Assembly (NCBI GenBank): GCA_963750945.1
Contig: CAVVSH010000015.1
Coordinates: 554,215-618,214, forward strand
DNA: 64,000 bases
Direction of reading: 5' to 3'
Source of the DNA: an uncultured Actinomycetota bacterium
Lineage (GTDB): Bacteria; Actinomycetota; UBA4738; HRBIN12
In this document: in pieces, positions 11,342-50,014 of the stretch
Position numbering within the stretch: the first letter of the stretch is position 1
How the letters are laid out: the number at the start of each line of letters is the position of its first letter
Program-made: the position numbers and the translations under genes
The notes under the pieces: model-generated
What the model saw: the letters and a program-made list of their open reading frames with translations, nothing else
Database searches by the model: none
What the model was told of the DNA's origin: nothing

Positions 11342-11345
11342 GGCG

Positions 11346-11417
11346 CGCCCCCGGCAGGATTCGAACCTGCGCCCCCGGCTCCGGAGGCCGGTGCTCTATC
11401 CCCTGAGCTACGGGGGC
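11346..11417 (-). tRNA. tRNA-Arg (anticodon CCG)
   Basis: Reverse complement GCCCCCGTAGCTCAGGGGATAGAGCACCGGCCTCCGGAGCCGGGGGCGCAGGTTCGAATCCTGCCGGGGGCG folds as a cloverleaf: 7-bp acceptor stem, D-arm GCTC/GAGC, anticodon stem CCGGC/GCCGG with loop CTCCGGA, T-arm GCAGG-TTCGAAT-CCTGC. CCA is not encoded. Confidence 0.8.
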
Positions 11418-39952: not shown

Positions 39953-41221
39953 ATGGACCGCCTCTTCGTCACGGGCGGCGCCCGTCTCGCCGGATCCGTC
40001 CGGATCTCGGGCGCCAAGAACTCCGCACTCAAGCTCATGGCCGCCTCGCTGCTCGCACCGGGTCGTTCGGTGCTGCGCAACGTTCCTCGCATCCTGGACT
40101 GCTTCACGATGGGGGAGGTCCTCGAGCACCTCGGGGCGGGCGTCTCGTGGGAGGAAGGGGGGGTGGCGGTCGACGCGACACACCTTTCCTCGGTCGAGGC
40201 CCCCTACGAGCTGGTCCGGCGGATGCGTGCATCGATCGCCGTCCTCGGGCCGTTGCTCGCCCGCACCGGCGAGGCTCGCGTCGCGATGCCGGGCGGCGAC
40301 AACATCGGCTCGCGTCCGATCGACCTCCATCTCGACGGCCTCCGGCGGATGGGCGCCGAGATCGTCGCCGAGCACGGGTTCCTGGTCGCGCGGGCCGACG
40401 GCCTCACCGGCGCATCGATCACCCTCGACTATCCGAGCGTCGGGGCCACCGAGAACCTGATGATGGCGGCGGTCACGGCCGAGGGCGTCACGGCGATCGA
40501 CAACGCCGCCCGAGAGCCCGAGATCGCGGACCTGGCCGCGTACCTCGTCGCGATGGGCGCGGGGATCCGCGGCGCCGGTTCCGCGACGATCGAGGTCGTG
40601 GGGGTTGAGGAACTGCGGGCGGCCGAGCACTCGGCGATCCCCGATCGGATCGAGGCCGGCACGTGGGCCGCGGCCGCGGTCGCGACCCGCGGCGACCTCG
40701 TGCTGGACGGCGCCCGCCCCGACCACCTCGAGCTGTTCCTCGAGAAGCTGGCGGAGGGCGGCGCCGAGATCCGGATGACGGACGAGGGGCTGCGGGTGAG
40801 GCAAGCCGAGCGGACGAAGGCCGCCGACTTCGTGACGCTGCCCTATCCGGGGCTCGCCACCGACTTCCAGCCGATCCTGCTGGCGATGCTCGCCACCGCG
40901 AACGGCACCAGCATCGCCACCGAGAACGTCTTCGAAGGGAGGTTCACCTACGTGGACGAGCTGCGCCGGATGGGCGCGGACATCCGCACCGAGGGGCACC
41001 ACGCGGTGATCCGCGGCGTCGAGCAGCTGTCCGCTGCGCCGGTCCGGGCGATGGACATCCGAGCGGGGGCCGCGATGGCGATCGCGGCGCTGACGGCGGA
41101 CGGCGTGAGCGAGATCGCCGACATCGACCACGTCGATCGGGGCTACGAGGACTTCGAAGCGAAGCTCACCGCGCTCGGCGCCGAGGTCAGGCGCGACCCC
41201 GAGCTCGTCCGTCTCCCGTGA
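39953..41221 (+). CDS. murA: UDP-N-acetylglucosamine 1-carboxyvinyltransferase
   Basis: EPT-family fold with the active-site loop (KNSALKLMAAS). Downstream of atpC as in mycobacteria. Confidence 0.9.
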   Translation: MDRLFVTGGARLAGSVRISGAKNSALKLMAASLLAPGRSVLRNVPRILDCFTMGEVLEHLGAGVSWEEGGVAVDATHLSSVEAPYELVRRMRASIAVLGPLLARTGEARVAMPGGDNIGSRPIDLHLDGLRRMGAEIVAEHGFLVARADGLTGASITLDYPSVGATENLMMAAVTAEGVTAIDNAAREPEIADLAAYLVAMGAGIRGAGSATIEVVGVEELRAAEHSAIPDRIEAGTWAAAAVATRGDLVLDGARPDHLELFLEKLAEGGAEIRMTDEGLRVRQAERTKAADFVTLPYPGLATDFQPILLAMLATANGTSIATENVFEGRFTYVDELRRMGADIRTEGHHAVIRGVEQLSAAPVRAMDIRAGAAMAIAALTADGVSEIADIDHVDRGYEDFEAKLTALGAEVRRDPELVRLP

Positions 41222-42879
41222 GGAAGGCGCTCCTCGCGGCGCTCGTCGCGCTGATCGCGGTCCCTCTGCCCGCGTCAGCTCAGCCCGTACCTCGTCAGGC
41301 TGTCGTTCTCTTCGTGGACGGCGTCTCGATGCCGGAGCTGCTCGAGGTCCCAGAGGTGCGAGCGATGGCGACACGAGGCGGCGTAGCCCTCATGAATGGT
41401 CGTTCGAGTGCGCGCGGCGAGATCCGAGCCATCCTGGAGGAGCATCCGGACAAGGCGACACAGCTGGAGATCGGCGGCCCCGGCCGGGTCGAGGATCTCG
41501 CTGTTGTTCTCGGCAAGGTTGGCTTCGTCGGCCGTGGCCCCACACTGCTGATGGTCATCTCGACGTCGCCGTCGGCGGCGTCGGCCGCGGACGGCGACGA
41601 GCTCGGGACCGTGATCGCCGCGTGGGGCGATCCGGAACAGCTCCTCGAGGCCCAGGGCGAGCCGCGGACGCTCACATCGGACTCCACGAGGCGCGCCGGT
41701 GTCGTCGCCGACGTCGACCCCGCCGCGACGGTCGCCGAGTGGCTGGACCTGCCGTATGAGGCCGGCGCGCCGATGAGACCCACCAGTGAGCCGGCGCCCC
41801 TGGATCTCTACGAGCGCTACCTCCAGCAGCGCCGGCTCGCCGTGCCGGTCGCCGCCGGTGCGTGGGGCTTGATGTTGCTTTTCGGCCTGGCCGGGGTCCT
41901 CGCGCTGGTGTTCCGCCGTCGCGTGTCCCCCCGTACCCTCGCGGTCGCCGGCGCGCTCGTCGGCTCGCTGCCGTGGCTCGCCCTCGGCCTCTTGCTCGTG
42001 GGTCACCTGCCGTCGCTCACGTACGCGACCGCCGTTCCGTTCCTGGTGACGACGATGGTGGCCGGTGTCGTGTTCACCCGGTGGATGCAAAGGCGCCGAA
42101 GCATCTTCGTCTCCATCGCGGCCTCCGGGGCCGTGATCCTCGTCGTCCTGGGCATCGAGGCGGCGCTCGGCTGGCCCGCGGCCGTCACCCCGCTCGCGGG
42201 CGGCGGGCAGCTGGACGGCGGCCGCTTCTTCGGGATGCCGAACATCGAGATCGGGATCGTCCTCGGGTCCGCGATGTTCCTCGCGCACCGCATCCGAGTG
42301 GGCTCCGGTGTCCTGCTCCTCGCCGCCTGCGCCGTCATCGCCGGGTCGCCGTGGACCGGGTCGAACTTCGGCGCGGCGATCACGCTCTTCGCGGCTGCCG
42401 GCCTCTGGCTCGGGATCCGACGCCGCCGCCCGTGGTGGTTGATCGTCGTGATCACCGGCGCGTTCGCGGCTCTCGGGACGGCCGCGGTCGCGCTGATGCA
42501 CCGGTACCTGACCGACCGGTCCACCCACGTCACCGCGTTCCTCGAGGAGACCGACGGCGTCGTGGGGGCCGTCGAGCGACAGCTCGACCGTCTTGGCGTG
42601 GGGCTCGACCTGATCGCCGACAATCCGCTCGCGCTGATACCGGTGGTGGGCACACTGATCCTGCTGATCATCGTGCTCCGCCCGCCGACGGCGATCGCGC
42701 AGTCCTTCGAGGGACACGACGCCTGGCACGATGCCCTTCTCGTCATCGCGCTCGGGTCGATCGTCGCTTACCTCGCCGAAGACACCGGCGCGGCGGCCGT
42801 CGGCTTCGCGTTCGGGTTCGCGCTGTCCGGTCTCATCGACGTGTCGCTCGACTCCGCCCGGAGGATGATTGCCCGATGA
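41218..42879 (+). CDS. Hypothetical exported membrane protein with an N-terminal signal peptide, an extracytoplasmic domain of about 200 aa, and a C-terminal polytopic membrane domain (about 10 TM)
   Basis: GTG overlaps the murA stop. Signal peptide ALLAALVALIAVPLPASAQP. The extracytoplasmic block VVLFVDGVSMPEL is faintly alkaline-phosphatase-superfamily-like. The C-terminal 300 aa are highly hydrophobic. Confidence 0.5.
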   Translation: MRKALLAALVALIAVPLPASAQPVPRQAVVLFVDGVSMPELLEVPEVRAMATRGGVALMNGRSSARGEIRAILEEHPDKATQLEIGGPGRVEDLAVVLGKVGFVGRGPTLLMVISTSPSAASAADGDELGTVIAAWGDPEQLLEAQGEPRTLTSDSTRRAGVVADVDPAATVAEWLDLPYEAGAPMRPTSEPAPLDLYERYLQQRRLAVPVAAGAWGLMLLFGLAGVLALVFRRRVSPRTLAVAGALVGSLPWLALGLLLVGHLPSLTYATAVPFLVTTMVAGVVFTRWMQRRRSIFVSIAASGAVILVVLGIEAALGWPAAVTPLAGGGQLDGGRFFGMPNIEIGIVLGSAMFLAHRIRVGSGVLLLAACAVIAGSPWTGSNFGAAITLFAAAGLWLGIRRRRPWWLIVVITGAFAALGTAAVALMHRYLTDRSTHVTAFLEETDGVVGAVERQLDRLGVGLDLIADNPLALIPVVGTLILLIIVLRPPTAIAQSFEGHDAWHDALLVIALGSIVAYLAEDTGAAAVGFAFGFALSGLIDVSLDSARRMIAR

Positions 42880-43652
42880 GCGCGTACGTGCCCCCGCGGC
42901 CCGACGAGCCGTTCCTCGAGGACCTGCCGGCGAAGGCGACCTGGCGATGGTGGGAGGCGCTCGTCGCCGTCCTCCTTGCCTGGCTGGCGGGAGGACTCGC
43001 CACGCTGCCGTTGCTGGCCCTGTTCGACCCGGAGACGGTCGGGCCGATCGGGGGTGAGGCGCTCTTCTTCGGCATCGTGTCGAACACGGTGTCGATGGCC
43101 GTGCTCATCGCGTGGCTGCGGAAGGCGCACCCGGCGTGGATCGAGATCATCGGGTGGCCGGATCGGTCGCGTGCCCTCATCGAGATCGCCGTGGGGGCAG
43201 GCCTCGGCATCGTGGTTCGCATCGCATCGGCGATCGTGGCCACCGGCGTCGTCTTCGTCCTGCGTGGTGCCACCGACGAGTCGGTGCAACTTCCTACCCA
43301 GATCGATCCCGACCTCACGGGGTGGGGCCTCGTGAGCTTCGCGATCTTCGCCGTGATCGCGGCGCCCGTCCTCGAGGAGTTCGTCTTCCGAGGTCTCTTG
43401 TTCCGCTCGATCGCCGATCGGAGCGGCTTCTGGGCCGGCGCGATCGTCTCGGCGGTCGCGTTCGGCGCGTTCCATCTCCTGACACCGGGCGACGGATTGG
43501 AGGTCCTCGCTCTCGGCCTCACGCACGTCGGCACGGGGATCGGCCTCGCGTGGATCTACTGGACCCGGCGGAACCTCCTCGCCAGCATCGCCGGCCACGC
43601 CGTCTTCAATCTGATCGCCGTGGTCACGATCATCGCGGGTTGGGAGGTCTGA
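42876..43652 (+). CDS. CPBP family intramembrane glutamic endopeptidase (CAAX protease / Abi)
   Basis: Motifs EEFVFRG, FGAFH and HAVFN. The ATG overlaps the upstream stop as ATGA. Confidence 0.75.
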   Translation: MSAYVPPRPDEPFLEDLPAKATWRWWEALVAVLLAWLAGGLATLPLLALFDPETVGPIGGEALFFGIVSNTVSMAVLIAWLRKAHPAWIEIIGWPDRSRALIEIAVGAGLGIVVRIASAIVATGVVFVLRGATDESVQLPTQIDPDLTGWGLVSFAIFAVIAAPVLEEFVFRGLLFRSIADRSGFWAGAIVSAVAFGAFHLLTPGDGLEVLALGLTHVGTGIGLAWIYWTRRNLLASIAGHAVFNLIAVVTIIAGWEV

Positions 43653-43654
43653 CC

Positions 43655-44074
43655 ATGCCGAAGTTCCCGACCGAGGACTGGTTCCAGGCCTTCATCGAAG
43701 CGATCAACGCATCGGAGGAATACGCGGAGTTCGCGGCGACCTGGGAGGGCGATGTGGTCTTCCAGATCGATGCCGAACCGGACAAGGGTCTGACCGAGAA
43801 CGTGCATGGGCTCCTCGACCTCTGGCACGGGGGATGCCGCGGCGGCGGCATCGTCGACGAGGAGAGGTCCGCGGCCGCCGAGTTCGCCGTCCGAGCCCCG
43901 TACTCGCGGTGGAAGGACGTGATCCAGGGAAACCTCGAGCCCATCAAGGGCCTGGTGCAGGGGAAGCTCCGGGTCCGGGGCGATCTGCCGAAGATCCTCC
44001 GCTACGTGAAGGGCACCCAGGAGCTCGCGTACATCGCCGGTCAGGTGGACACGACCTTTCCCGACGAGTCCTGA
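43655..44074 (+). CDS. SCP2 sterol-binding domain protein
   Basis: About 139 aa. The C-terminal GKLRVRGDLPKILRY block is typical of SCP-2. GGGAGG SD upstream. Confidence 0.6.
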   Translation: MPKFPTEDWFQAFIEAINASEEYAEFAATWEGDVVFQIDAEPDKGLTENVHGLLDLWHGGCRGGGIVDEERSAAAEFAVRAPYSRWKDVIQGNLEPIKGLVQGKLRVRGDLPKILRYVKGTQELAYIAGQVDTTFPDES

Positions 44075-45114
44075 TGCGCGGCGTCGTCTTCGACGGAGTG
44101 GGTCGCGTCCGCGTGACCGATCTGCCCGATCCGGAGATCGAAGCTCCCGGCGAGGCGATCGTGCGGGTCACGAGGACCGCGATCTGCGGGAGCGATCTCC
44201 ACCTGCTCCACGGCAAGGCTCCGATGGAGCCGGGAGAGCCGCTCGGTCACGAGGCGGTCGGCGTCGTGGAAGCGGTCGGCGGAGCCGTCGAACGCACGCG
44301 GGTCGGTGATCGAGTCGCGGTGGCGTTCAACGTCGCCTGCGGACGGTGTTGGTTCTGCGGGAACGGGCAGTCGGCTCTCTGCGACGACGATGCGATCTTC
44401 GGCTACGGGATCTTCGGAGGGGCGCTCCCGGGGGCGCAGGCCGAACGGCTGCGCGTCCCCAACGCCGACATCAACCTGCTCCGGCTCCCCGACGCCGTCG
44501 ACGACGAGGCCGGTGTCTTCGTGGGCGATGTGTTGACCACGGGCTTCTACGGTGCGTCGCTCGCCGCTGCCGGGCAGGACGACGTCGTCGCGGTGATGGG
44601 CTGCGGGCCGGTGGGGTTCTGCACCATCGAAGGGTTGCGGGCGCTCGGTGCGACGACGATCTACGCGCTCGACCGCGAGCCGTCGCGGCTGGCGCTCGCG
44701 GCGGCGGCGGGGGCGATCCCCGTGCACGTGAACGAGCGGAACCCCGTGACGGCGCTCGCCGAGGCGACGGACGGTCGCGGGGCCGACGTCGTGATCGATG
44801 CGGTCGGGCACCCCTTGGCCTTCGAAGGGGCGATCGACGCGGTGCGGCGAGGCGGCACCGTCGTCGTGCTCGGCGTCTACTCGTCGGAGACGACCCACGT
44901 GCAGCTCGGCGCCTACTGGTCGCGCGCCCTCACCGTCCGGTTCGCGGGACTCACGCCGGTCCTCGCCTGGTGGGAGCGGGCGACGGCAGCTCTCGAACGA
45001 GGTGAGGTCGATCCCACGCCGTTGATCAGCCATCGCCTGCGGCTGGAGGACGCGGCAGAGGGCTACGCGTTGTTCGATCGACGCGAGGCGACCAAGGTCG
45101 TGCTGGCACCGTGA
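44074..45114 (+). CDS. Zinc-binding alcohol dehydrogenase (MDR family)
   Basis: Catalytic zinc motif (GHEAVGVVEAVG), structural zinc cysteines (CGRCWFCGNG...C), and the NAD fold GCGPVG. Confidence 0.8.
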   Translation: MRGVVFDGVGRVRVTDLPDPEIEAPGEAIVRVTRTAICGSDLHLLHGKAPMEPGEPLGHEAVGVVEAVGGAVERTRVGDRVAVAFNVACGRCWFCGNGQSALCDDDAIFGYGIFGGALPGAQAERLRVPNADINLLRLPDAVDDEAGVFVGDVLTTGFYGASLAAAGQDDVVAVMGCGPVGFCTIEGLRALGATTIYALDREPSRLALAAAAGAIPVHVNERNPVTALAEATDGRGADVVIDAVGHPLAFEGAIDAVRRGGTVVVLGVYSSETTHVQLGAYWSRALTVRFAGLTPVLAWWERATAALERGEVDPTPLISHRLRLEDAAEGYALFDRREATKVVLAP

Positions 45115-45536
45115 AGATCACCGTCGTCGGCTCCGAACCGAGCGGGCTCGCGTCGATGGCCGCCGAGCTCATCGAACAGAACCTCGCCCGCGATCCCGCG
45201 CGGCGCGGACTCCTCCGACGGTCGGTCGCGGTGCTGGACGCATCGGACGTCGACGTCACGGTCTTCCTCCGGATCGCGCCGGAGGAGGTGCGAGTGGGAG
45301 ACGGGAACGTCCCCGACGCGCATCTCGTGATCAGAGCGGAGTCGGGGCGGCTGCTCGATCTGACGACCGCGCCACTCCGCTTCGGGTTGCCCGACGTGCT
45401 GACTCCGGAAGGGCGCGCGATCGTCGGCGACCTCCTCGGGCGACGCATGCGGATCCGAGGGCTGCTGCGTCATCCTCTGCGGCTCGCGCGACTCACCAAG
45501 CTGTTGTCCGTCGCCGACACCGGAAGGAAGGCGTGA
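45111..45536 (+). CDS. Hypothetical protein, possibly a divergent SCP2-like lipid-binding domain
   Basis: About 141 aa. The C-terminal amphipathic pattern (GDLLGRRMRIRGLLRHPLRLARLTKLL) is reminiscent of SCP2. GTG start overlaps the ADH stop. Confidence 0.4.
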   Translation: MKITVVGSEPSGLASMAAELIEQNLARDPARRGLLRRSVAVLDASDVDVTVFLRIAPEEVRVGDGNVPDAHLVIRAESGRLLDLTTAPLRFGLPDVLTPEGRAIVGDLLGRRMRIRGLLRHPLRLARLTKLLSVADTGRKA

Positions 45537-46162
45537 TCCGCTCGTCCGATGTGCCGGTCCGGCCGGACGCGCCTGCCGGCGCGTCCCGGCCGGCCCGGCG
45601 CTGGCTCCCCACCGCGCTCGTCACGCTCGTGATGTCGGTGACGGTGCTCGGCGGGTTCGTCGTCGCGGAGACGCTCCCGGCGCCGGACGTGCAGCCGATC
45701 GCGCTCGCGGACGTGCTCCGGTTCCGACCGCTCCCCGGTTGGGAAGTGGTTCGCCGCGAGCAGGCAACGGTGCCGCTCCCTCCCGGCGGCGTCGTCTCGG
45801 GCGAGTTCGCGCAGCTCACGCGCGGGAGCGGGGCCCTCGATCTCCTCGCGCTCCCGGACGTCGGCGGTGACGCGCTCGAGCTGGCGGATCTCTATGCCAC
45901 CGCCGTCCTCACGAGCCAGCTCGAGCGCCTGTCCGTCTCCGACCTGGTGGAACGGATCACGCTGCCGAGTGGCATGGAGGCCGTTCGCTTCGGCTACATC
46001 GGTTCGCAGCCGCAGACCGGAGCGGCGCTCGAAGGCTCGGTCACGGTCGTCGTCGCCCCGTCCGGCAACGGCGCGGTGTTCGACGGGTGGGCACCGCAGG
46101 GTCAGCTCGAGCTGATCTCCGAGGAGCTCGTCGCGATGATCGCGCGGGCGGAGGTCGCCTGA
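45533..46162 (+). CDS. Hypothetical membrane-anchored protein (single N-terminal TM helix plus an extracytoplasmic domain)
   Basis: TM helix LPTALVTLVMSVTVLGGFVVA. No recognisable domain. Translationally coupled on both sides. Confidence 0.4.
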   Translation: MIRSSDVPVRPDAPAGASRPARRWLPTALVTLVMSVTVLGGFVVAETLPAPDVQPIALADVLRFRPLPGWEVVRREQATVPLPPGGVVSGEFAQLTRGSGALDLLALPDVGGDALELADLYATAVLTSQLERLSVSDLVERITLPSGMEAVRFGYIGSQPQTGAALEGSVTVVVAPSGNGAVFDGWAPQGQLELISEELVAMIARAEVA

Positions 46163-47389
46163 GTGGCCCGCCCTCTGTCCCTCTCGCGGTCGCCGCTTCA
46201 CCACGCGCGGTTCCTCCAGCCACGGCTGCCCGCCTTCTGGCTGTACACGTTGGTCGTCGCGCTCACCGGGATCGTGGCGATCGGAGAACAGAACCTGTTC
46301 CGCGAGATCTCCCCGAGCGGCTGGGCCCTGTCCTGGGGTCTCGTCCTCCTGTACGCCGCGCCCGTCGCGGCGCTGATCTACCTGCTGGATCTGTACGAGC
46401 GGGAGCCGATCCCGCTGCTGGTGGCGGCGTTCGTCTGGGGGGCGGTGGCCGCGACCACCCTGTCCGCGATCGGCAACGCCGGATGGGGGATCGTCGTCGC
46501 CCGTCTCGGAGGAGCCGAGTTCGCGACCCGATGGACGGCGGCGCTGACGGCGCCGTTCGTCGAGGAGATCCTGAAGGGCGTCGGCGTCGTCCTGATCGTC
46601 CTGATCGCACGCGACGAAGTCGACGACGTCATGGACGGGTTCGTCTACGGCGCCCTGTGCGGCCTGGGATTCACGATCGTCGAGGACGTCTTCTACTTCA
46701 TCGCGGTCTTCGGTGGGGACGTCGAGGGCGTGTTGCAGGGATTCTTCGTCCGCGTCATCGCGAGCGGCCTGTACTCCCACGTGTTGTACACGGGGCTGGT
46801 CGGCATGGCGATCGGGATCGTCACGACCCGCCGCGACGACCGTCCCCTCCCCGAGCGGCTGCGTCCCGCCGGTCTGCTCGCCGGCGCCGCCGTCTTCGGT
46901 CACTTCCTCTGGAACTCGCCGTTCCTCGAGTTCTTCCCGCCGCATCCGTGGGAAGGAGTGGAATGGTTCCTGATCCCGGTGGCCACCGCCGTCAAGGGGC
47001 TTCCGCTCTTGCTGTTCGTGGTGCTCCTGGTCCGCCTCGCACACACGCGGGAGCGCCGATGGCTGCACGAGACCCTCGCGTCGGAGCTCGACGAGGGATC
47101 CGTGACCCCCCAGGAACTGGCGATCCTCGAGAGCCCGCGACGTCGTTTCCACGCTCGGCGCGAGCTCCGGCGGCGTGCGGGCGATCGCGCCGCCGACCTG
47201 CTGAAGCGTCTCCAGCGCGAGCAGGTGAACCTCGCGATGGTGCGGTCGCGCGTCGCCTCCGAGGACGATCCCGCGCTCATCCGGCAGCGCGCCGTGTGCC
47301 GGTCGATCCGCGATGCGTTGGAGGCGATCCCCGGCGCCGCATCCGCGGTCGGGAGCGGGCAGCCCGGAGCGGATGGGCCGCTAGGGTGA
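46163..47389 (+). CDS. PrsW family intramembrane metalloprotease
   Basis: PrsW signatures (FVEEILKG and FGHFLWN) in a polytopic membrane protein, plus a cytoplasmic C-terminal domain. Confidence 0.65.
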   Translation: MARPLSLSRSPLHHARFLQPRLPAFWLYTLVVALTGIVAIGEQNLFREISPSGWALSWGLVLLYAAPVAALIYLLDLYEREPIPLLVAAFVWGAVAATTLSAIGNAGWGIVVARLGGAEFATRWTAALTAPFVEEILKGVGVVLIVLIARDEVDDVMDGFVYGALCGLGFTIVEDVFYFIAVFGGDVEGVLQGFFVRVIASGLYSHVLYTGLVGMAIGIVTTRRDDRPLPERLRPAGLLAGAAVFGHFLWNSPFLEFFPPHPWEGVEWFLIPVATAVKGLPLLLFVVLLVRLAHTRERRWLHETLASELDEGSVTPQELAILESPRRRFHARRELRRRAGDRAADLLKRLQREQVNLAMVRSRVASEDDPALIRQRAVCRSIRDALEAIPGAASAVGSGQPGADGPLG

Positions 47390-48336
47390 ACGCCGTGATG
47401 GACGTCGGGGCGCTGGTCGAAGGGGTCTTGGCCGGCGATCGGCGTGCCGTGGCACGCGCGATCTCGGCCGTCGAGGACGACGCCCCCGAGCTGGCGGACC
47501 TCTCCGCCGGCATCTACGGCAAGACCGGGGAAGCGACGACGATCGGCCTGACCGGAGCGCCGGGCGTCGGGAAGTCGACGCTCGCAGGTGAGCTGGTCCG
47601 CATCGCGCGAGGAGAGGACCTCCGCGCCGCCGTGCTCGCCGTCGATCCGACCTCTCCCTATACGGGAGGCGCGCTCCTCGGGGACCGCGTGCGGATGCAG
47701 GACCATGCGGTCGATCCCGGCGTGTTCATCCGGTCGATGGCGACCCGCGGCCACCTCGGCGGGATGGCGCTCGCCGCGCCCGAGGCGGTTCGCATCCTCG
47801 ACGCGGCCGGCTACGACGTGATCTTCGTGGAGACGGTCGGCGTCGGGCAGGCCGAGGTCGACGTGGCGGCGGCCACGGATACCGCTGTCGTGGTGATGGC
47901 GCCGGGGATGGGCGACGCGGTGCAGATGGCGAAGGCCGGCATCCTCGAAGCGGCGGACGTCTTCGTCGTGAACAAGGCGGATCGCGAAGGCGCCCCGGAG
48001 GTCGCGAAGGAGCTCCGGCAGATGCTGCATCTGGGCGCCGCACGGGACTGGGACCCGCCCGTCCTCATGGCGACGGCGGCCAGGAGCGAGGGGGTCGACG
48101 AGGTCTGGGCCGCGGTGCGTCAGCACCGCGACCAGGCCGAGGCGTCCGGCGCGCTCGCCGCGAAGCGGCGAGCGCGCCTGCTCCGGGAGGCGGAGAGCCT
48201 TGCGGCCGAGCGCTTCCGGATCCGCGCCGCCGAGGCGCTCGAGGCCGATCCGGCACTCGGCGACGATCTCGCCGAGCGCCGGATCGACCCCTACCGCGCT
48301 GCGCAGGAGCTCCTCCGCCGCGCCGGCACTCCGTGA
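47386..48336 (+). CDS. meaB: Methylmalonyl-CoA mutase-associated GTPase (MeaB/ArgK)
   Basis: G1 motif GAPGVGKST, VETVGVGQ and NKAD motifs. Confidence 0.85.
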   Translation: MNAVMDVGALVEGVLAGDRRAVARAISAVEDDAPELADLSAGIYGKTGEATTIGLTGAPGVGKSTLAGELVRIARGEDLRAAVLAVDPTSPYTGGALLGDRVRMQDHAVDPGVFIRSMATRGHLGGMALAAPEAVRILDAAGYDVIFVETVGVGQAEVDVAAATDTAVVVMAPGMGDAVQMAKAGILEAADVFVVNKADREGAPEVAKELRQMLHLGAARDWDPPVLMATAARSEGVDEVWAAVRQHRDQAEASGALAAKRRARLLREAESLAAERFRIRAAEALEADPALGDDLAERRIDPYRAAQELLRRAGTP

Positions 48337-48379: not shown

Positions 48380-50014
48380 GTGAGCCCCGAGCGAACACGA
48401 GCCTCGTGGAGCGAGCGTTCGCATCGTTCCCTTTCCGGCGAGCCGGTCCCGGCGGTGGTCGGTCCGGACGATCTCGACGGCTGGGATCCCGACGAGAAGC
48501 TCGGTGAACCCGGCGCGTACCCCTTCACCCGAGGCGCGTACCCCTCGATGTACCGAGGCCGGCTCTGGACGATGCGCCAGTTCGCCGGGTACGGCACGCC
48601 GGCCGAGACGAACGCCCGCTACCGCTTCCTGACCGAGCACGGCCAGACCGGCTTGTCGGTCGCGTTCGACATGCCGACGCTCATGGGCCTGGACTCCGAC
48701 GACCCGCGGAGCGAGGGCGAAGTCGGGCGCTGCGGTGTCGCCACGGATTCCCTCGACGACTTCGAGACGCTCTTCGACAAGATCCCGCTCGGTGACGTCA
48801 CCACCTCGATGACGATCAGCGGGCCCGCGGTCGTCGTGTTCGCGTTCTTCCTCGCCACGGCGGAAGAACAGGGGGTCGACTGGACAACCCTCGACGGCAC
48901 GCTCCAGACCGATATCTTCAAGGAGTACATCGCGCAGAAGGAATGGGTGTTCCCGCCGCGCCCGCACCTGCGGCTCATCGGTGACCTGATGGAGTTCTGC
49001 GCCGAGCACGTGCCCAAGTGGCACCCGATCAGCGTTTCCGGCTACCACATCCGCGAGGCCGGAGCGACCGCAGCGGAGGAGCTCGCGTTCACGCTCGCCG
49101 ACGGATTCGCCTACGTCGAGCTCGGCATGCAGCGCGGCCTCGACGTCGACGTCTTCTCGCCCGCGCTCTCGTTCTTCTTCAACGCACACATCGACTTCTT
49201 CGAGGAGATCGCGAAGCTCCGCGCCGCGCGCCGGATCTGGGCTCGCTGGATGCGCGACCGCTATGGTGCGAAGTCGCCCGAGGCGATGCGCCTGCGATTC
49301 CACACACAGACGGCCGGCGTGTCCCTCACGGCCCAGCAGCCGATGAACAACGTGGTCCGCACCGCGATCGAGGCTCTGGCCGCGGTCCTGGGCGGCACGC
49401 AGTCGCTGCACACGAACGCGCTGGACGAGGTCCTCGCGCTTCCCACCGAGGACACCGCGAAGCTCGCGCTCCGTACCCAACAGGTGATCGCGTTCGAGTC
49501 GGGTGTCCCCGACGTCATCGATCCGCTGGGGGGCTCGTGGTTCGTCGAGGAGGCCACCGACCGGATCGAAGCTCGCGCCGAGGAGATCTTCGCGGAGATC
49601 GAGCAGATGGGGAACGGCTCGATGCTCGAGGGTGTCCTCGAGGGGATCGAGCAGGGCTGGTTCCAACGGCGGATCGCCGAGTCGGCGTTCCAGGAGCAGC
49701 GGCGCTACGAGTCCGGCGACCTCGTGAAGGTGGGCGTCACGGACTTCGTCGACGCGAACGAGACCCCGATCGACACGCTCGTGATCGGAGAGGAGGCGGA
49801 GCGCAGCCAGCTCGAGAGCGTCGGCCGCACCCGCGCCGCTCGCGACGCCGGTGCTGCCGACGACGCCCTCATCGCCCTGAAGGAGGCGGCGACGACCGAC
49901 GCGAACCTGATGGAGCCCATCATCCGGTGTGCCCGGGCCCGCTGCACGGAGGGGGAGATCGTGGGGGCCCTGGCGTCCGTCTTCGGGACGTACCGAGAGA
50001 CACCTGCCTTCTGA
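48380..50014 (+). CDS. Methylmalonyl-CoA mutase large subunit (catalytic N-terminal domain; no B12-binding domain in this ORF)
   Basis: Conserved MCM TIM-barrel blocks (FTRGAYPSMY, RQFAGYGT, FDMPTLMG, HTQTAG). In-frame GTG 48380. About 544 aa, so the B12 subunit must be encoded elsewhere. Confidence 0.85.
   Translation: MSPERTRASWSERSHRSLSGEPVPAVVGPDDLDGWDPDEKLGEPGAYPFTRGAYPSMYRGRLWTMRQFAGYGTPAETNARYRFLTEHGQTGLSVAFDMPTLMGLDSDDPRSEGEVGRCGVATDSLDDFETLFDKIPLGDVTTSMTISGPAVVVFAFFLATAEEQGVDWTTLDGTLQTDIFKEYIAQKEWVFPPRPHLRLIGDLMEFCAEHVPKWHPISVSGYHIREAGATAAEELAFTLADGFAYVELGMQRGLDVDVFSPALSFFFNAHIDFFEEIAKLRAARRIWARWMRDRYGAKSPEAMRLRFHTQTAGVSLTAQQPMNNVVRTAIEALAAVLGGTQSLHTNALDEVLALPTEDTAKLALRTQQVIAFESGVPDVIDPLGGSWFVEEATDRIEARAEEIFAEIEQMGNGSMLEGVLEGIEQGWFQRRIAESAFQEQRRYESGDLVKVGVTDFVDANETPIDTLVIGEEAERSQLESVGRTRAARDAGAADDALIALKEAATTDANLMEPIIRCARARCTEGEIVGALASVFGTYRETPAF

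Follow-up and report, generated by a model that had tools for sequence, protein, structure and literature searches.

Conserved backbone and variable slot in a murA-linked gene row of uncultured Actinomycetota

The PrsW-RsiW-SigW system of Bacillus subtilis places a polytopic intramembrane protease of family PF13367, with EExxK and HxxxN motifs, beside RsiW, a single-pass protein with an extracytoplasmic domain and a zinc-binding anti-sigma domain. Proteases of the CPBP/Abi family (PF02517) include the bacteriocin-immunity Abi proteins, MroQ, SpdC/LyrA and MrtJ/MrtS. SCP2 domains are linked to lipid enzymes in the bacterial UbiJ/UbiT and in the eukaryotic MFE-2, SCPx and HSDL2. Members of the PsbP/DcrB/LpqN fold bind lipids, detergents or transmembrane (TM) helices at the membrane surface; the PsbP/Mog1-fold envelope proteins include DcrB of Salmonella, LpqN and Mtc28 of Mycobacterium tuberculosis, and Eag/SciW. 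LtaS, EptA/MCR-1, BcsG and PIG-N/O/G consist of an exported domain with the alkaline phosphatase superfamily signature and a polytopic membrane domain. Here we describe a row of seven genes (g1 to g7) between murA and meaB whose products recall these systems in part. It lies at positions 41218-47389 of a 64-kb stretch of DNA, in the following called the window (64,000 nucleotides of contig CAVVSH010000015.1), from an uncultured Actinomycetota bacterium.

We show that this row consists of a fixed backbone, murA-g1-CPBP at one end and meaB with an acyl-CoA mutase gene at the other, and of a slot between them in which modules are gained and lost independently. The recognisable proteins all belong to known superfamilies. 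New are the family of g1 and the pairing of a PsbP-fold protein, g6, with a PrsW protease, g7. The genes are:

39953-41221, plus strand: murA, UDP-GlcNAc 1-carboxyvinyltransferase, 422 aa (TIGR01072, 537 bits; PF00275, E 1e-101)
41218-42879, plus strand: g1, 553 aa, signal peptide, ectodomain of ~190 aa and 11 predicted TM helices (no Pfam or NCBIfam match)
42876-43652, plus strand: g2, CPBP (Rce1-like) glutamic intramembrane protease, 258 aa (PF02517, E 1e-17)
43655-44074, plus strand: g3, cytosolic SCP2 protein, 139 aa (PF02036, E 2e-8)
44074-45114, plus strand: g4, zinc-dependent medium-chain alcohol dehydrogenase (Zn-ADH, ADH), 346 aa (PF08240 and PF00107)
45111-45536, plus strand: g5, divergent SCP2-like protein, 141 aa (PF02036 in orthologues)
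45533-46162, plus strand: g6, 209 aa, cytoplasmic tail of ~26 aa, one TM helix (residues 27-47) and an ectodomain of PsbP/DcrB/LpqN fold
46163-47389, plus strand: g7, intramembrane protease of the PrsW family, 408 aa, of which a tail of ~110 aa follows the last predicted TM helix (PF13367, E 2e-39)
47386-48336, plus strand: meaB, G-protein chaperone of acyl-CoA mutases (TIGR00750, 327 bits; PF03308, E 8e-87)
48380-50014, plus strand: acyl-CoA mutase large subunit, substrate-binding domain only (PF01642, E 1e-204)

The CPBP, SCP2, Zn-ADH, PrsW and MeaB assignments had been made in a preliminary description of this DNA and are backed by Pfam and NCBIfam. No Pfam match was obtained for the 553-, 141- and 209-aa products of the window (g1, g5 and g6), and among the cluster proteins MurA and MeaB alone reach curated orthologue groups of NCBIfam.

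Backbone and slot in about 140 loci

Relatives of g1 were collected from two protein databases (285 word-index matches; 608 cluster representatives by exhaustive search with hidden Markov models). They come overwhelmingly from metagenome assemblies. Most are unnamed; all named ones and all 51 species-level genome loci belong to metagenome-assembled genomes (MAGs) of uncultured Actinomycetota/Actinomycetes, one of these loci being labelled Candidatus Limnocylindrales. The lineages that carry the block, uncultured soil Actinomycetota, are known from metagenomes only. A plasmid collection held no g1 homologue and, for PrsW, distant homologues in unrelated contexts only.

The synteny of the 51 genome loci was determined by tblastn. 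In most of them the order atpD-atpC-murA-g1-CPBP-SCP2-ADH-g5-g6-PrsW-meaB-mutase is kept, and this full order reaches a clade in which g1 is ~40% and murA ~70% identical. A census of about 140 loci was then made up of the 51 genome loci, the contexts of distant g1 relatives and 80 metagenome loci found with a profile of long-form g1. murA lies directly upstream of g1 in all loci with enough upstream sequence (78/78). Directly after g1 comes a CPBP gene (86 loci) or the gene of an HDAC-type deacetylase (18 loci), one locus having neither; every other cluster gene is missing from the 18 HDAC-type loci. All 53 CPBP-type architectures that are traceable downstream end in meaB-mutase. From CPBP to meaB the slot holds:

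SCP2-ADH-g5-g6-PrsW: 33 loci (28 clean, 5 with frameshift-split or duplicated hits)
SCP2-ADH-g6-PrsW: 4 loci
SCP2-ADH-g5: 6 loci
SIR2-SCP2-ADH-g5: 4 loci
SIR2 alone: 3 loci
SCP2-ADH: 2 loci
SCP2-g5: 1 locus

Sixteen architectures have CPBP without PrsW. All loci with g6 or PrsW have both genes (37/37), and where one is lost the other is lost as well. The block from murA to the mutase gene is intact also where other genes replace the atp operon upstream (L059, L060). Since SCP2-ADH-g5, SIR2 and g6-PrsW vary independently and CPBP occurs without PrsW, the two proteases do not make up a conserved pair. They had been described earlier as partners in one module; the CPBP loci that lack PrsW and the HDAC-type loci, which keep g1 alone, speak against this. 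Conservation of the neighbourhood, proposed as a check at the same time, was found for the full order in most of the 51 genomes and not for the content of the slot.

Two unrelated deacetylase families fill neighbouring positions in other lineages. The HDAC-type gene follows g1 with a 4-nt overlap (L056:12151-13347, L058:12073-13218), and a CobB-size SIR2 deacetylase gene follows CPBP (L060:12339-13163, L062:12267-13070). In five loci from long-read MAGs (L049, L017, L027, L028, L038) single genes give split or duplicated tblastn hits. These are likely frameshift errors, which calls for caution with gene losses deduced there.

Our preferred reading, which we hold with moderate confidence, is that 41218-47389 is a genuine and probably co-transcribed row of seven genes, in which a conserved backbone surrounds a variable slot filled by separately inherited modules. 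Module A would be formed by g1 and CPBP. Here g1, in which an exported domain like that of the alkaline phosphatase superfamily is joined to an 11-TM domain, would act outside, at the outer membrane face, and its substrate would be an envelope precursor that is lipid-linked or phosphorylated; through the GTGA overlap g1 would be stoichiometrically coupled to MurA. CPBP may act on a partner in the membrane, which it processes or protects and which could be g1. In module B, SCP2, Zn-ADH and the SCP2-like protein could form a cytosolic oxidoreductase system for a hydrophobic alcohol or aldehyde that is handed over by the two carriers. In module C, g6 would be a reporter of envelope state, and PrsW, as its dedicated protease, would cleave g6 or be gated by it; the two may thus be an envelope-sensing or quality-control pair without sigma/anti-sigma output. 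All these activities, their substrates and the single transcript are inferred, and no long-standing question is answered by them yet.

Several points weigh against this reading. Every genome with the cluster is an uncultured MAG, and the stability of the full nine-gene order across a wide clade could equally mean one selected pathway. The link of g1 to alkaline phosphatases is one short motif with marginal E-values that is degenerate in the window copy. g1 has conserved D..S.E, GDE and S154/D167 columns, in which canonical metal and nucleophile positions were not identified. Its AlphaFold2 (AF2) model is poor (pLDDT 61), and Foldseek found no fold match for this low-confidence model in the PDB. 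Finally, the overlapping genes have no space between them, and a scan for consensus promoters and terminators gave nothing useful in the high-GC DNA of the window.

The stable order leads directly to one of the alternatives, according to which all seven genes form one undescribed pathway of envelope-lipid or proteolytic signalling. CPBP and then PrsW would act in it, g6 would be an RsiW-like substrate, and SCP2 and ADH would supply or sense the lipid. Such a pathway would agree with eight consecutive junctions of at most 2 nt, with a full order that extends down to ~40% g1 identity, with the strict co-occurrence of g6 and PrsW and with the intact catalytic residues of both proteases. It does not agree with CPBP loci that lack PrsW, with HDAC-type loci that have g1 without the others, or with the independent gain and loss of the SCP2-ADH-g5 trio, SIR2 and g6-PrsW. 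We consider a single pathway improbable, and the properties of g6 and g7 described below argue in the same direction.

g1, its cassette and the CPBP protease

Judged by its sequence, g1 represents a new family of membrane proteins outside Pfam. Three segments of the gene are of importance:

41404-41565, plus strand: hypervariable cassette, residues 63-116 of the g1 ectodomain (DNA divergence spans 41213-41580)
41671-41772, plus strand: ectodomain segment with the C-terminal signature of the alkaline phosphatase superfamily (profile of 55 family members)
41851-42840, plus strand: membrane domain, TM1-TM11 (predicted topology; invariant columns)

The predicted topology obeys the positive-inside rule, with 16 Lys and Arg among 47 'inside' residues and almost none in the short 'outside' loops. 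Among 55 diverse family members, G334/R336/G339/N342, P378, H437/R458 and D522 are invariant, all of them in predicted extracytoplasmic loops; D333 is Asp in 41 of the 55 and Glu in 10. In the ectodomain S154, G161, V163 and D167 are invariant. Because the invariant Arg, His, Asp and Asn residues all face outward, g1 would be an extracytoplasmic enzyme, and we infer from the predicted topology that its active site lies at the outer membrane face and works with the ectodomain.

The ectodomain signature has the consensus LTSDTTRRxGxVSNxDVAPTILxFxGxPxPxEMxG. At this signature the 55-member profile weakly matches iPGM, sulfatases and phosphonate monoester hydrolase in the PDB (E 0.02-0.4), and 32 of the 55 members match PF16347 (SGSH_C), though even the best match (E 8e-5) does not reach the gathering score. 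When the PDB was searched by sequence with a profile of close g1 homologues, nothing was found. The part 'DVAPTIL..G.P.P.EM.G' of the signature, within an exported domain joined to a polytopic membrane domain, is what g1 would share with LtaS, EptA/MCR-1, BcsG and PIG-N/O/G. The eukaryotic PIG-N type, with its N-terminal alkaline phosphatase domain followed by many TM helices, has the same domain order as g1. Unlike in these enzymes, metal ligands and nucleophile were not identified in g1 and no Pfam or PDB match is significant; moreover, the membrane domain of g1 is unrelated to theirs and has its own invariant outward-facing residues. Likening g1 to enzymes that act on polyprenyl-phosphate-linked or phospholipid substrates is our own comparison. 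The invariable attachment of g1 to murA makes g1 a candidate for a so far undescribed step by which actinobacteria assemble their envelope.

The cassette of g1 is flanked by the conserved motifs GGxALMNGR and SPSAASAADGDELG and comprises 52-66 aa in homologues. Among 92 full-length homologues, the median identity at residues 63-116 is 25% for those pairs of g1 proteins whose residues 117-553 agree to at least 90%. Column entropy is 2.4 bits in the cassette vs 0.04-1.2 bits in the rest of the mature protein, and the cassette alleles form discrete families. On the DNA level, identity between the window and the loci L003/L004 is 90-98% outside 41213-41580 and 23-66% inside; the first ~360-500 nt of g1 drop to 23-66% where neighbouring genes have 90-98%. 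A diversity-generating retroelement was considered as the source of the variability and rejected as unlikely, since the window contains no template-repeat copy of the cassette.

The neighbouring CPBP gene is polymorphic as well. Its product scores 64.5 bits against PF02517 (cut-off 22.4) and has the motifs EExxxR, FxxxH and HxxxN, E167, E168, R172, H200, H241 and N245 being invariant in 49 orthologues and F196 being Phe in 46 of them and Trp in three. The protein stays far below all NCBIfam cut-offs for named CPBP subfamilies (MroQ, MrtJ/MrtS, Rv0804, PEP-CTERM CAAX), e.g. 38.5 bits vs 75 for MrtJ and 20.5 vs 270 for MroQ. Close relatives carry one of two CPBP allele classes, A and B, that are 38-44% identical in genomes whose neighbouring genes are 81-97% identical; the gene DNA of the two classes is 46-64% identical over almost its whole length. 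Between L007 (11749-12457) and L002, the CPBP classes are incongruent with flanking genes of 93-97% DNA identity. The boundaries between the classes are recombination-like and begin ~90 nt after the start of the gene, and both classes retain intact catalytic motifs. Like known CPBP/Abi genes, g2 has PF02517 with three intact catalytic motifs, lies beside the gene of an exported or membrane protein and is polymorphic as immunity genes are. It differs from them in its constant linkage to murA-g1, in scores below those of all curated equivalogs and in the lack of a bacteriocin, Agr or CTERM-sorting substrate gene nearby.

Taken together, the patterns of the g1 cassette and of CPBP suggest that surface-exposed parts exist as divergent alleles that recombine with one another, and diversifying selection may be at work. 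An alternative for the cassette is relaxed constraint on an insertion-prone loop; in long-form g1 homologues a far larger insertion sits near this position. With the cassette and the CPBP allele classes, selection at the cell surface of uncultured soil bacteria becomes accessible to population-genomic tests.

The same patterns could be the trace of a conflict. In this alternative, which is compatible with the backbone-and-slot reading, g1, exposed at the surface, would be the receptor of a membrane-targeting bacteriocin or of a phage that its cassette helps to escape, and CPBP, as an Abi-type protein, would be a diversifying immunity or processing factor. Abi/CPBP proteins of Firmicutes make their producers immune to their own bacteriocins, and the receptors of several bacteriocins are polytopic membrane enzymes. 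A sharply bounded cassette with discrete allele families in an exported protein that is otherwise at least 90% identical would fit this idea, as would two CPBP allele classes that are incongruent with their neighbours and have recombination-like boundaries. Yet the cluster contains no bacteriocin, toxin or phage gene, PADLOC found no match to a defence-system component among the seven proteins (0 matches), and the correlation between g1 cassette and CPBP alleles is weak (r = 0.34). The universal linkage of murA and g1 suggests a housekeeping role, and the cassette could be a weakly constrained surface insertion, given the larger one in the long-form homologues. A conflict locus is therefore very doubtful. 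We give equally little credence to a joint reading, in which g1 would be a murA-coupled surface enzyme, cassette and CPBP would reflect a bacteriocin or phage arms race in a core cell-wall locus of soil Actinomycetota that are abundant but uncultured, and g6-PrsW would be an anti-sigma-free sensing pair.

The slot genes

The AF2 model of g6 has a pLDDT of 81.6, with values >90 over most of the ectodomain. Foldseek against the PDB matches it to PsbP/CyanoP (E 2e-5), DcrB, LpqN, Mtc28 and the Eag/SciW chaperones (E 2e-5 to 2e-3); there are 26 PDB matches at E <=1e-3, with target-normalised TM-scores of 0.43-0.67. The likeness is at fold level only, with no match to a sequence family, and a Pfam scan of g6 orthologues gave noise only. 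The fold check by AlphaFold suggested in the preliminary description was hence informative for the 209-aa protein, which has a confident PsbP/DcrB/LpqN fold, and not for the 553-aa g1. Like DcrB and LpqN, g6 would be tethered at the outer face of the cytoplasmic membrane, by a TM helix in place of a lipobox. Several Pro and Arg positions are conserved in its cytoplasmic tail.

g7 scores 135.7 bits against PF13367 (cut-off 23.5). In its EExxK and HxxxN motifs E134/E135/K138, E174 and H247 are invariant in 33 orthologues, D175 and N251 in 32 of the 33. The two intramembrane proteases of the row thus have catalytic motifs that are conserved in orthologues, in line with their first description. 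With B. subtilis PrsW, g7 shares the family, the motifs and the position beside a single-pass protein with an extracytoplasmic domain. However, it lies far below the cut-off of the B. subtilis-type equivalog NF033739 (42.1 bits vs 225), has an extra tail of ~110 aa, and is not accompanied by a sigma gene: no sigma-factor domain was found among the cluster genes or in ten open reading frames (ORFs) scanned at 50-62 kb.

The ~26 cytoplasmic residues of g6 are too few to hold an anti-sigma domain, and what the protein has is a PsbP/DcrB-like ectodomain, not a zinc-binding anti-sigma domain as in RsiW. It had been proposed as a substrate of PrsW by analogy with RsiW. This analogy falls with the short tail and the fold of g6, whereas a functional link between g6 and PrsW is plausible, because the two co-occur strictly and are lost jointly. 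The absence of an anti-sigma domain from g6 and of a sigma factor from the cluster and the scanned flanking genes, and the distance of g7 from the B. subtilis equivalog, also count against the single pathway with an RsiW-like g6 discussed above. Literature searches found no description of an obligate pairing of PsbP/Mog1-fold proteins with a PrsW protease, and those on PrsW in Actinobacteria found nothing on this cluster. A PrsW with an obligate partner that is no anti-sigma factor and has a lipid- or TM-helix-binding fold would widen the known uses of PrsW-type proteolysis.

In three species of one sub-clade (L026, L031, L039) g6-PrsW is jointly replaced by a zinc-ribbon membrane protein. The replacement in L039 (14340-15038) has 232 aa; it consists of a zinc ribbon (CPKCG...CRKCG) at the N-terminus, a linker rich in Pro and ~4 TM helices.

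The genes g3 to g5 encode an SCP2 protein and an SCP2-like protein on either side of a dehydrogenase. g3 matches PF02036 with 35 bits (cut-off 21.3), its nearest solved relative being SCP2 of Thermus thermophilus (1wfr/2cx7, E 3e-26). In g4 the catalytic C38/H59/E60 do not vary among 43 orthologues, nor do the structural Cys89/92/95/103. Among solved structures, the alcohol dehydrogenase 4cpd, which we take to be the Thermus enzyme TADH, is nearest (E 3e-81); no NCBIfam equivalog was reached by g4. As for g5, the window copy does not match PF02036, which is matched by 13 of 21 orthologues (best E 2.6e-4), and in an hhalign comparison g5 and g3 align weakly at the C-terminal SCP2 motif. By the matches of its orthologues g5 is probably a divergent SCP2, which supports the second SCP2-like protein of 141 aa proposed before. 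It is missing from at least 7 loci that retain ADH (L041, L048, L051, L076-L078, L104). The possibility that g5 is the missing B12-binding small subunit of the mutase was rejected, as its orthologues match SCP2 and not the B12-binding domain.

Stand-alone SCP2 genes beside a dehydrogenase gene suggest presentation of a hydrophobic substrate. As in UbiJ/UbiT, MFE-2, SCPx and HSDL2, the SCP2 domain would be associated with a lipid enzyme, here a dehydrogenase encoded next to it. Unlike in those systems, two separate proteins, SCP2 and SCP2-like, flank a Zn-dependent ADH of the MDR type without fusions, and they sit next to meaB-mutase without accompanying quinone, sterol or beta-oxidation genes. 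Literature searches on SCP2/ADH operons found no description of this cluster.

Junctions, flanks and gene models

Every gene from 38075 to ~50014 lies on the plus strand, and GC3 frame plots give the same frames as the preliminary description. murA, the seven genes at 41218-47389 and meaB are nine plus-strand genes, joined by GTGA/ATGA overlaps or gaps of 0-2 nt:

murA/g1: GTGA overlap, 41218-41221
g1/CPBP: ATGA overlap, 42876-42879
CPBP/SCP2 (g2/g3): 2-nt gap
SCP2/ADH (g3/g4): TGATG, 1-nt overlap at 44074
ADH/g5: GTGA overlap at 45111
g5/g6: GTGA overlap at 45533
g6/PrsW: TGAGTG, 0-nt gap
PrsW/meaB: GTGA overlap at 47386

The tight coupling of nine genes, reported before, is evident in these eight junctions and recurs in orthologous loci. 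Median spacing there is -4 nt at murA>g1, g1>CPBP and ADH>g5 and -1 nt at g5>g6 and g6>PrsW, and the junctions g4>g5, g5>g6 and g6>g7 measure <=3 nt in 90-97% of loci. In the clade with g1 at ~40% identity the gap is wider at CPBP>SCP2 (35-66 nt), and PrsW and meaB are ~10 nt apart.

The gaps at the flanks are likewise short, 58 nt between atpC and murA and 43 nt between meaB and the mutase gene. Stop/start overlaps are also common elsewhere in the window, e.g. in the atp operon (atpD/atpC; other pairs in a crude ORF call, which took the first in-frame start only). By the same call, a co-directional plus-strand run from ~19.4 to 52.4 kb, >30 kb long, includes nearly all genes. Tight junctions are a genome-wide habit in this genome. 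wecA and the atp operon lie upstream of murA in the syntenic loci L001/L002, and znuACB lies downstream in the window. Because the flanks are also tightly packed, the sequence does not set the borders of an operon; of the one operon from murA to meaB postulated earlier, the tight packing is borne out and the extent is not.

The row could on these grounds be inherited synteny in compact genomes, i.e. unrelated genes whose junctions reflect genome-wide packing. The common overlaps, the long co-directional run and the variable content of the slot would be expected in this case, as would the conservation, here too, of wecA-atp-murA, an ancient actinobacterial synteny. The linkages of murA with g1 (78/78) and of g6 with PrsW (37/37) are, however, stricter than drift would leave them across lineages with 24-45% identical g1. 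The block outlasts the replacement of its upstream neighbours, and the short spacing at the three junctions from g4 to g7 is kept in nearly all loci. Synteny without function is thus unlikely, and the backbone with separately inherited modules is the reading we retain.

Public gene calls give shorter forms of two products, affecting 41218-41391 and 45111-45230 of the window (P0001, L054). g1 is called with 495 aa (P0001, start 58 codons later) and, in a frameshifted near-identical contig, with 345 aa; g5 is called with 101 aa. The start of g1 at 41218 is backed by conserved N-terminal residues in homologues of 553-560 aa. Conservation in homologues and GC3 favour the long forms of g1 and g5, which produce the GTGA overlaps.

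The mutase has no B12-binding domain, and no gene for a B12-binding subunit is adjacent, the next gene being znuA. It reads 'SMY' and 'AQKEW' at the positions that we take to match the substrate-specificity sites of P. shermanii methylmalonyl-CoA mutase. This Tyr/Gln combination differs from Tyr/Arg in methylmalonyl-CoA mutase and from Phe/Gln in isobutyryl-CoA mutase.

Rfam and tRNA scans revealed no RNA element in or near the cluster, and no riboswitch or other Rfam family reached threshold in the 64-kb window. The sole RNA gene detected in it is a tRNA-Arg(CCG) at 11345-11417 on the minus strand.

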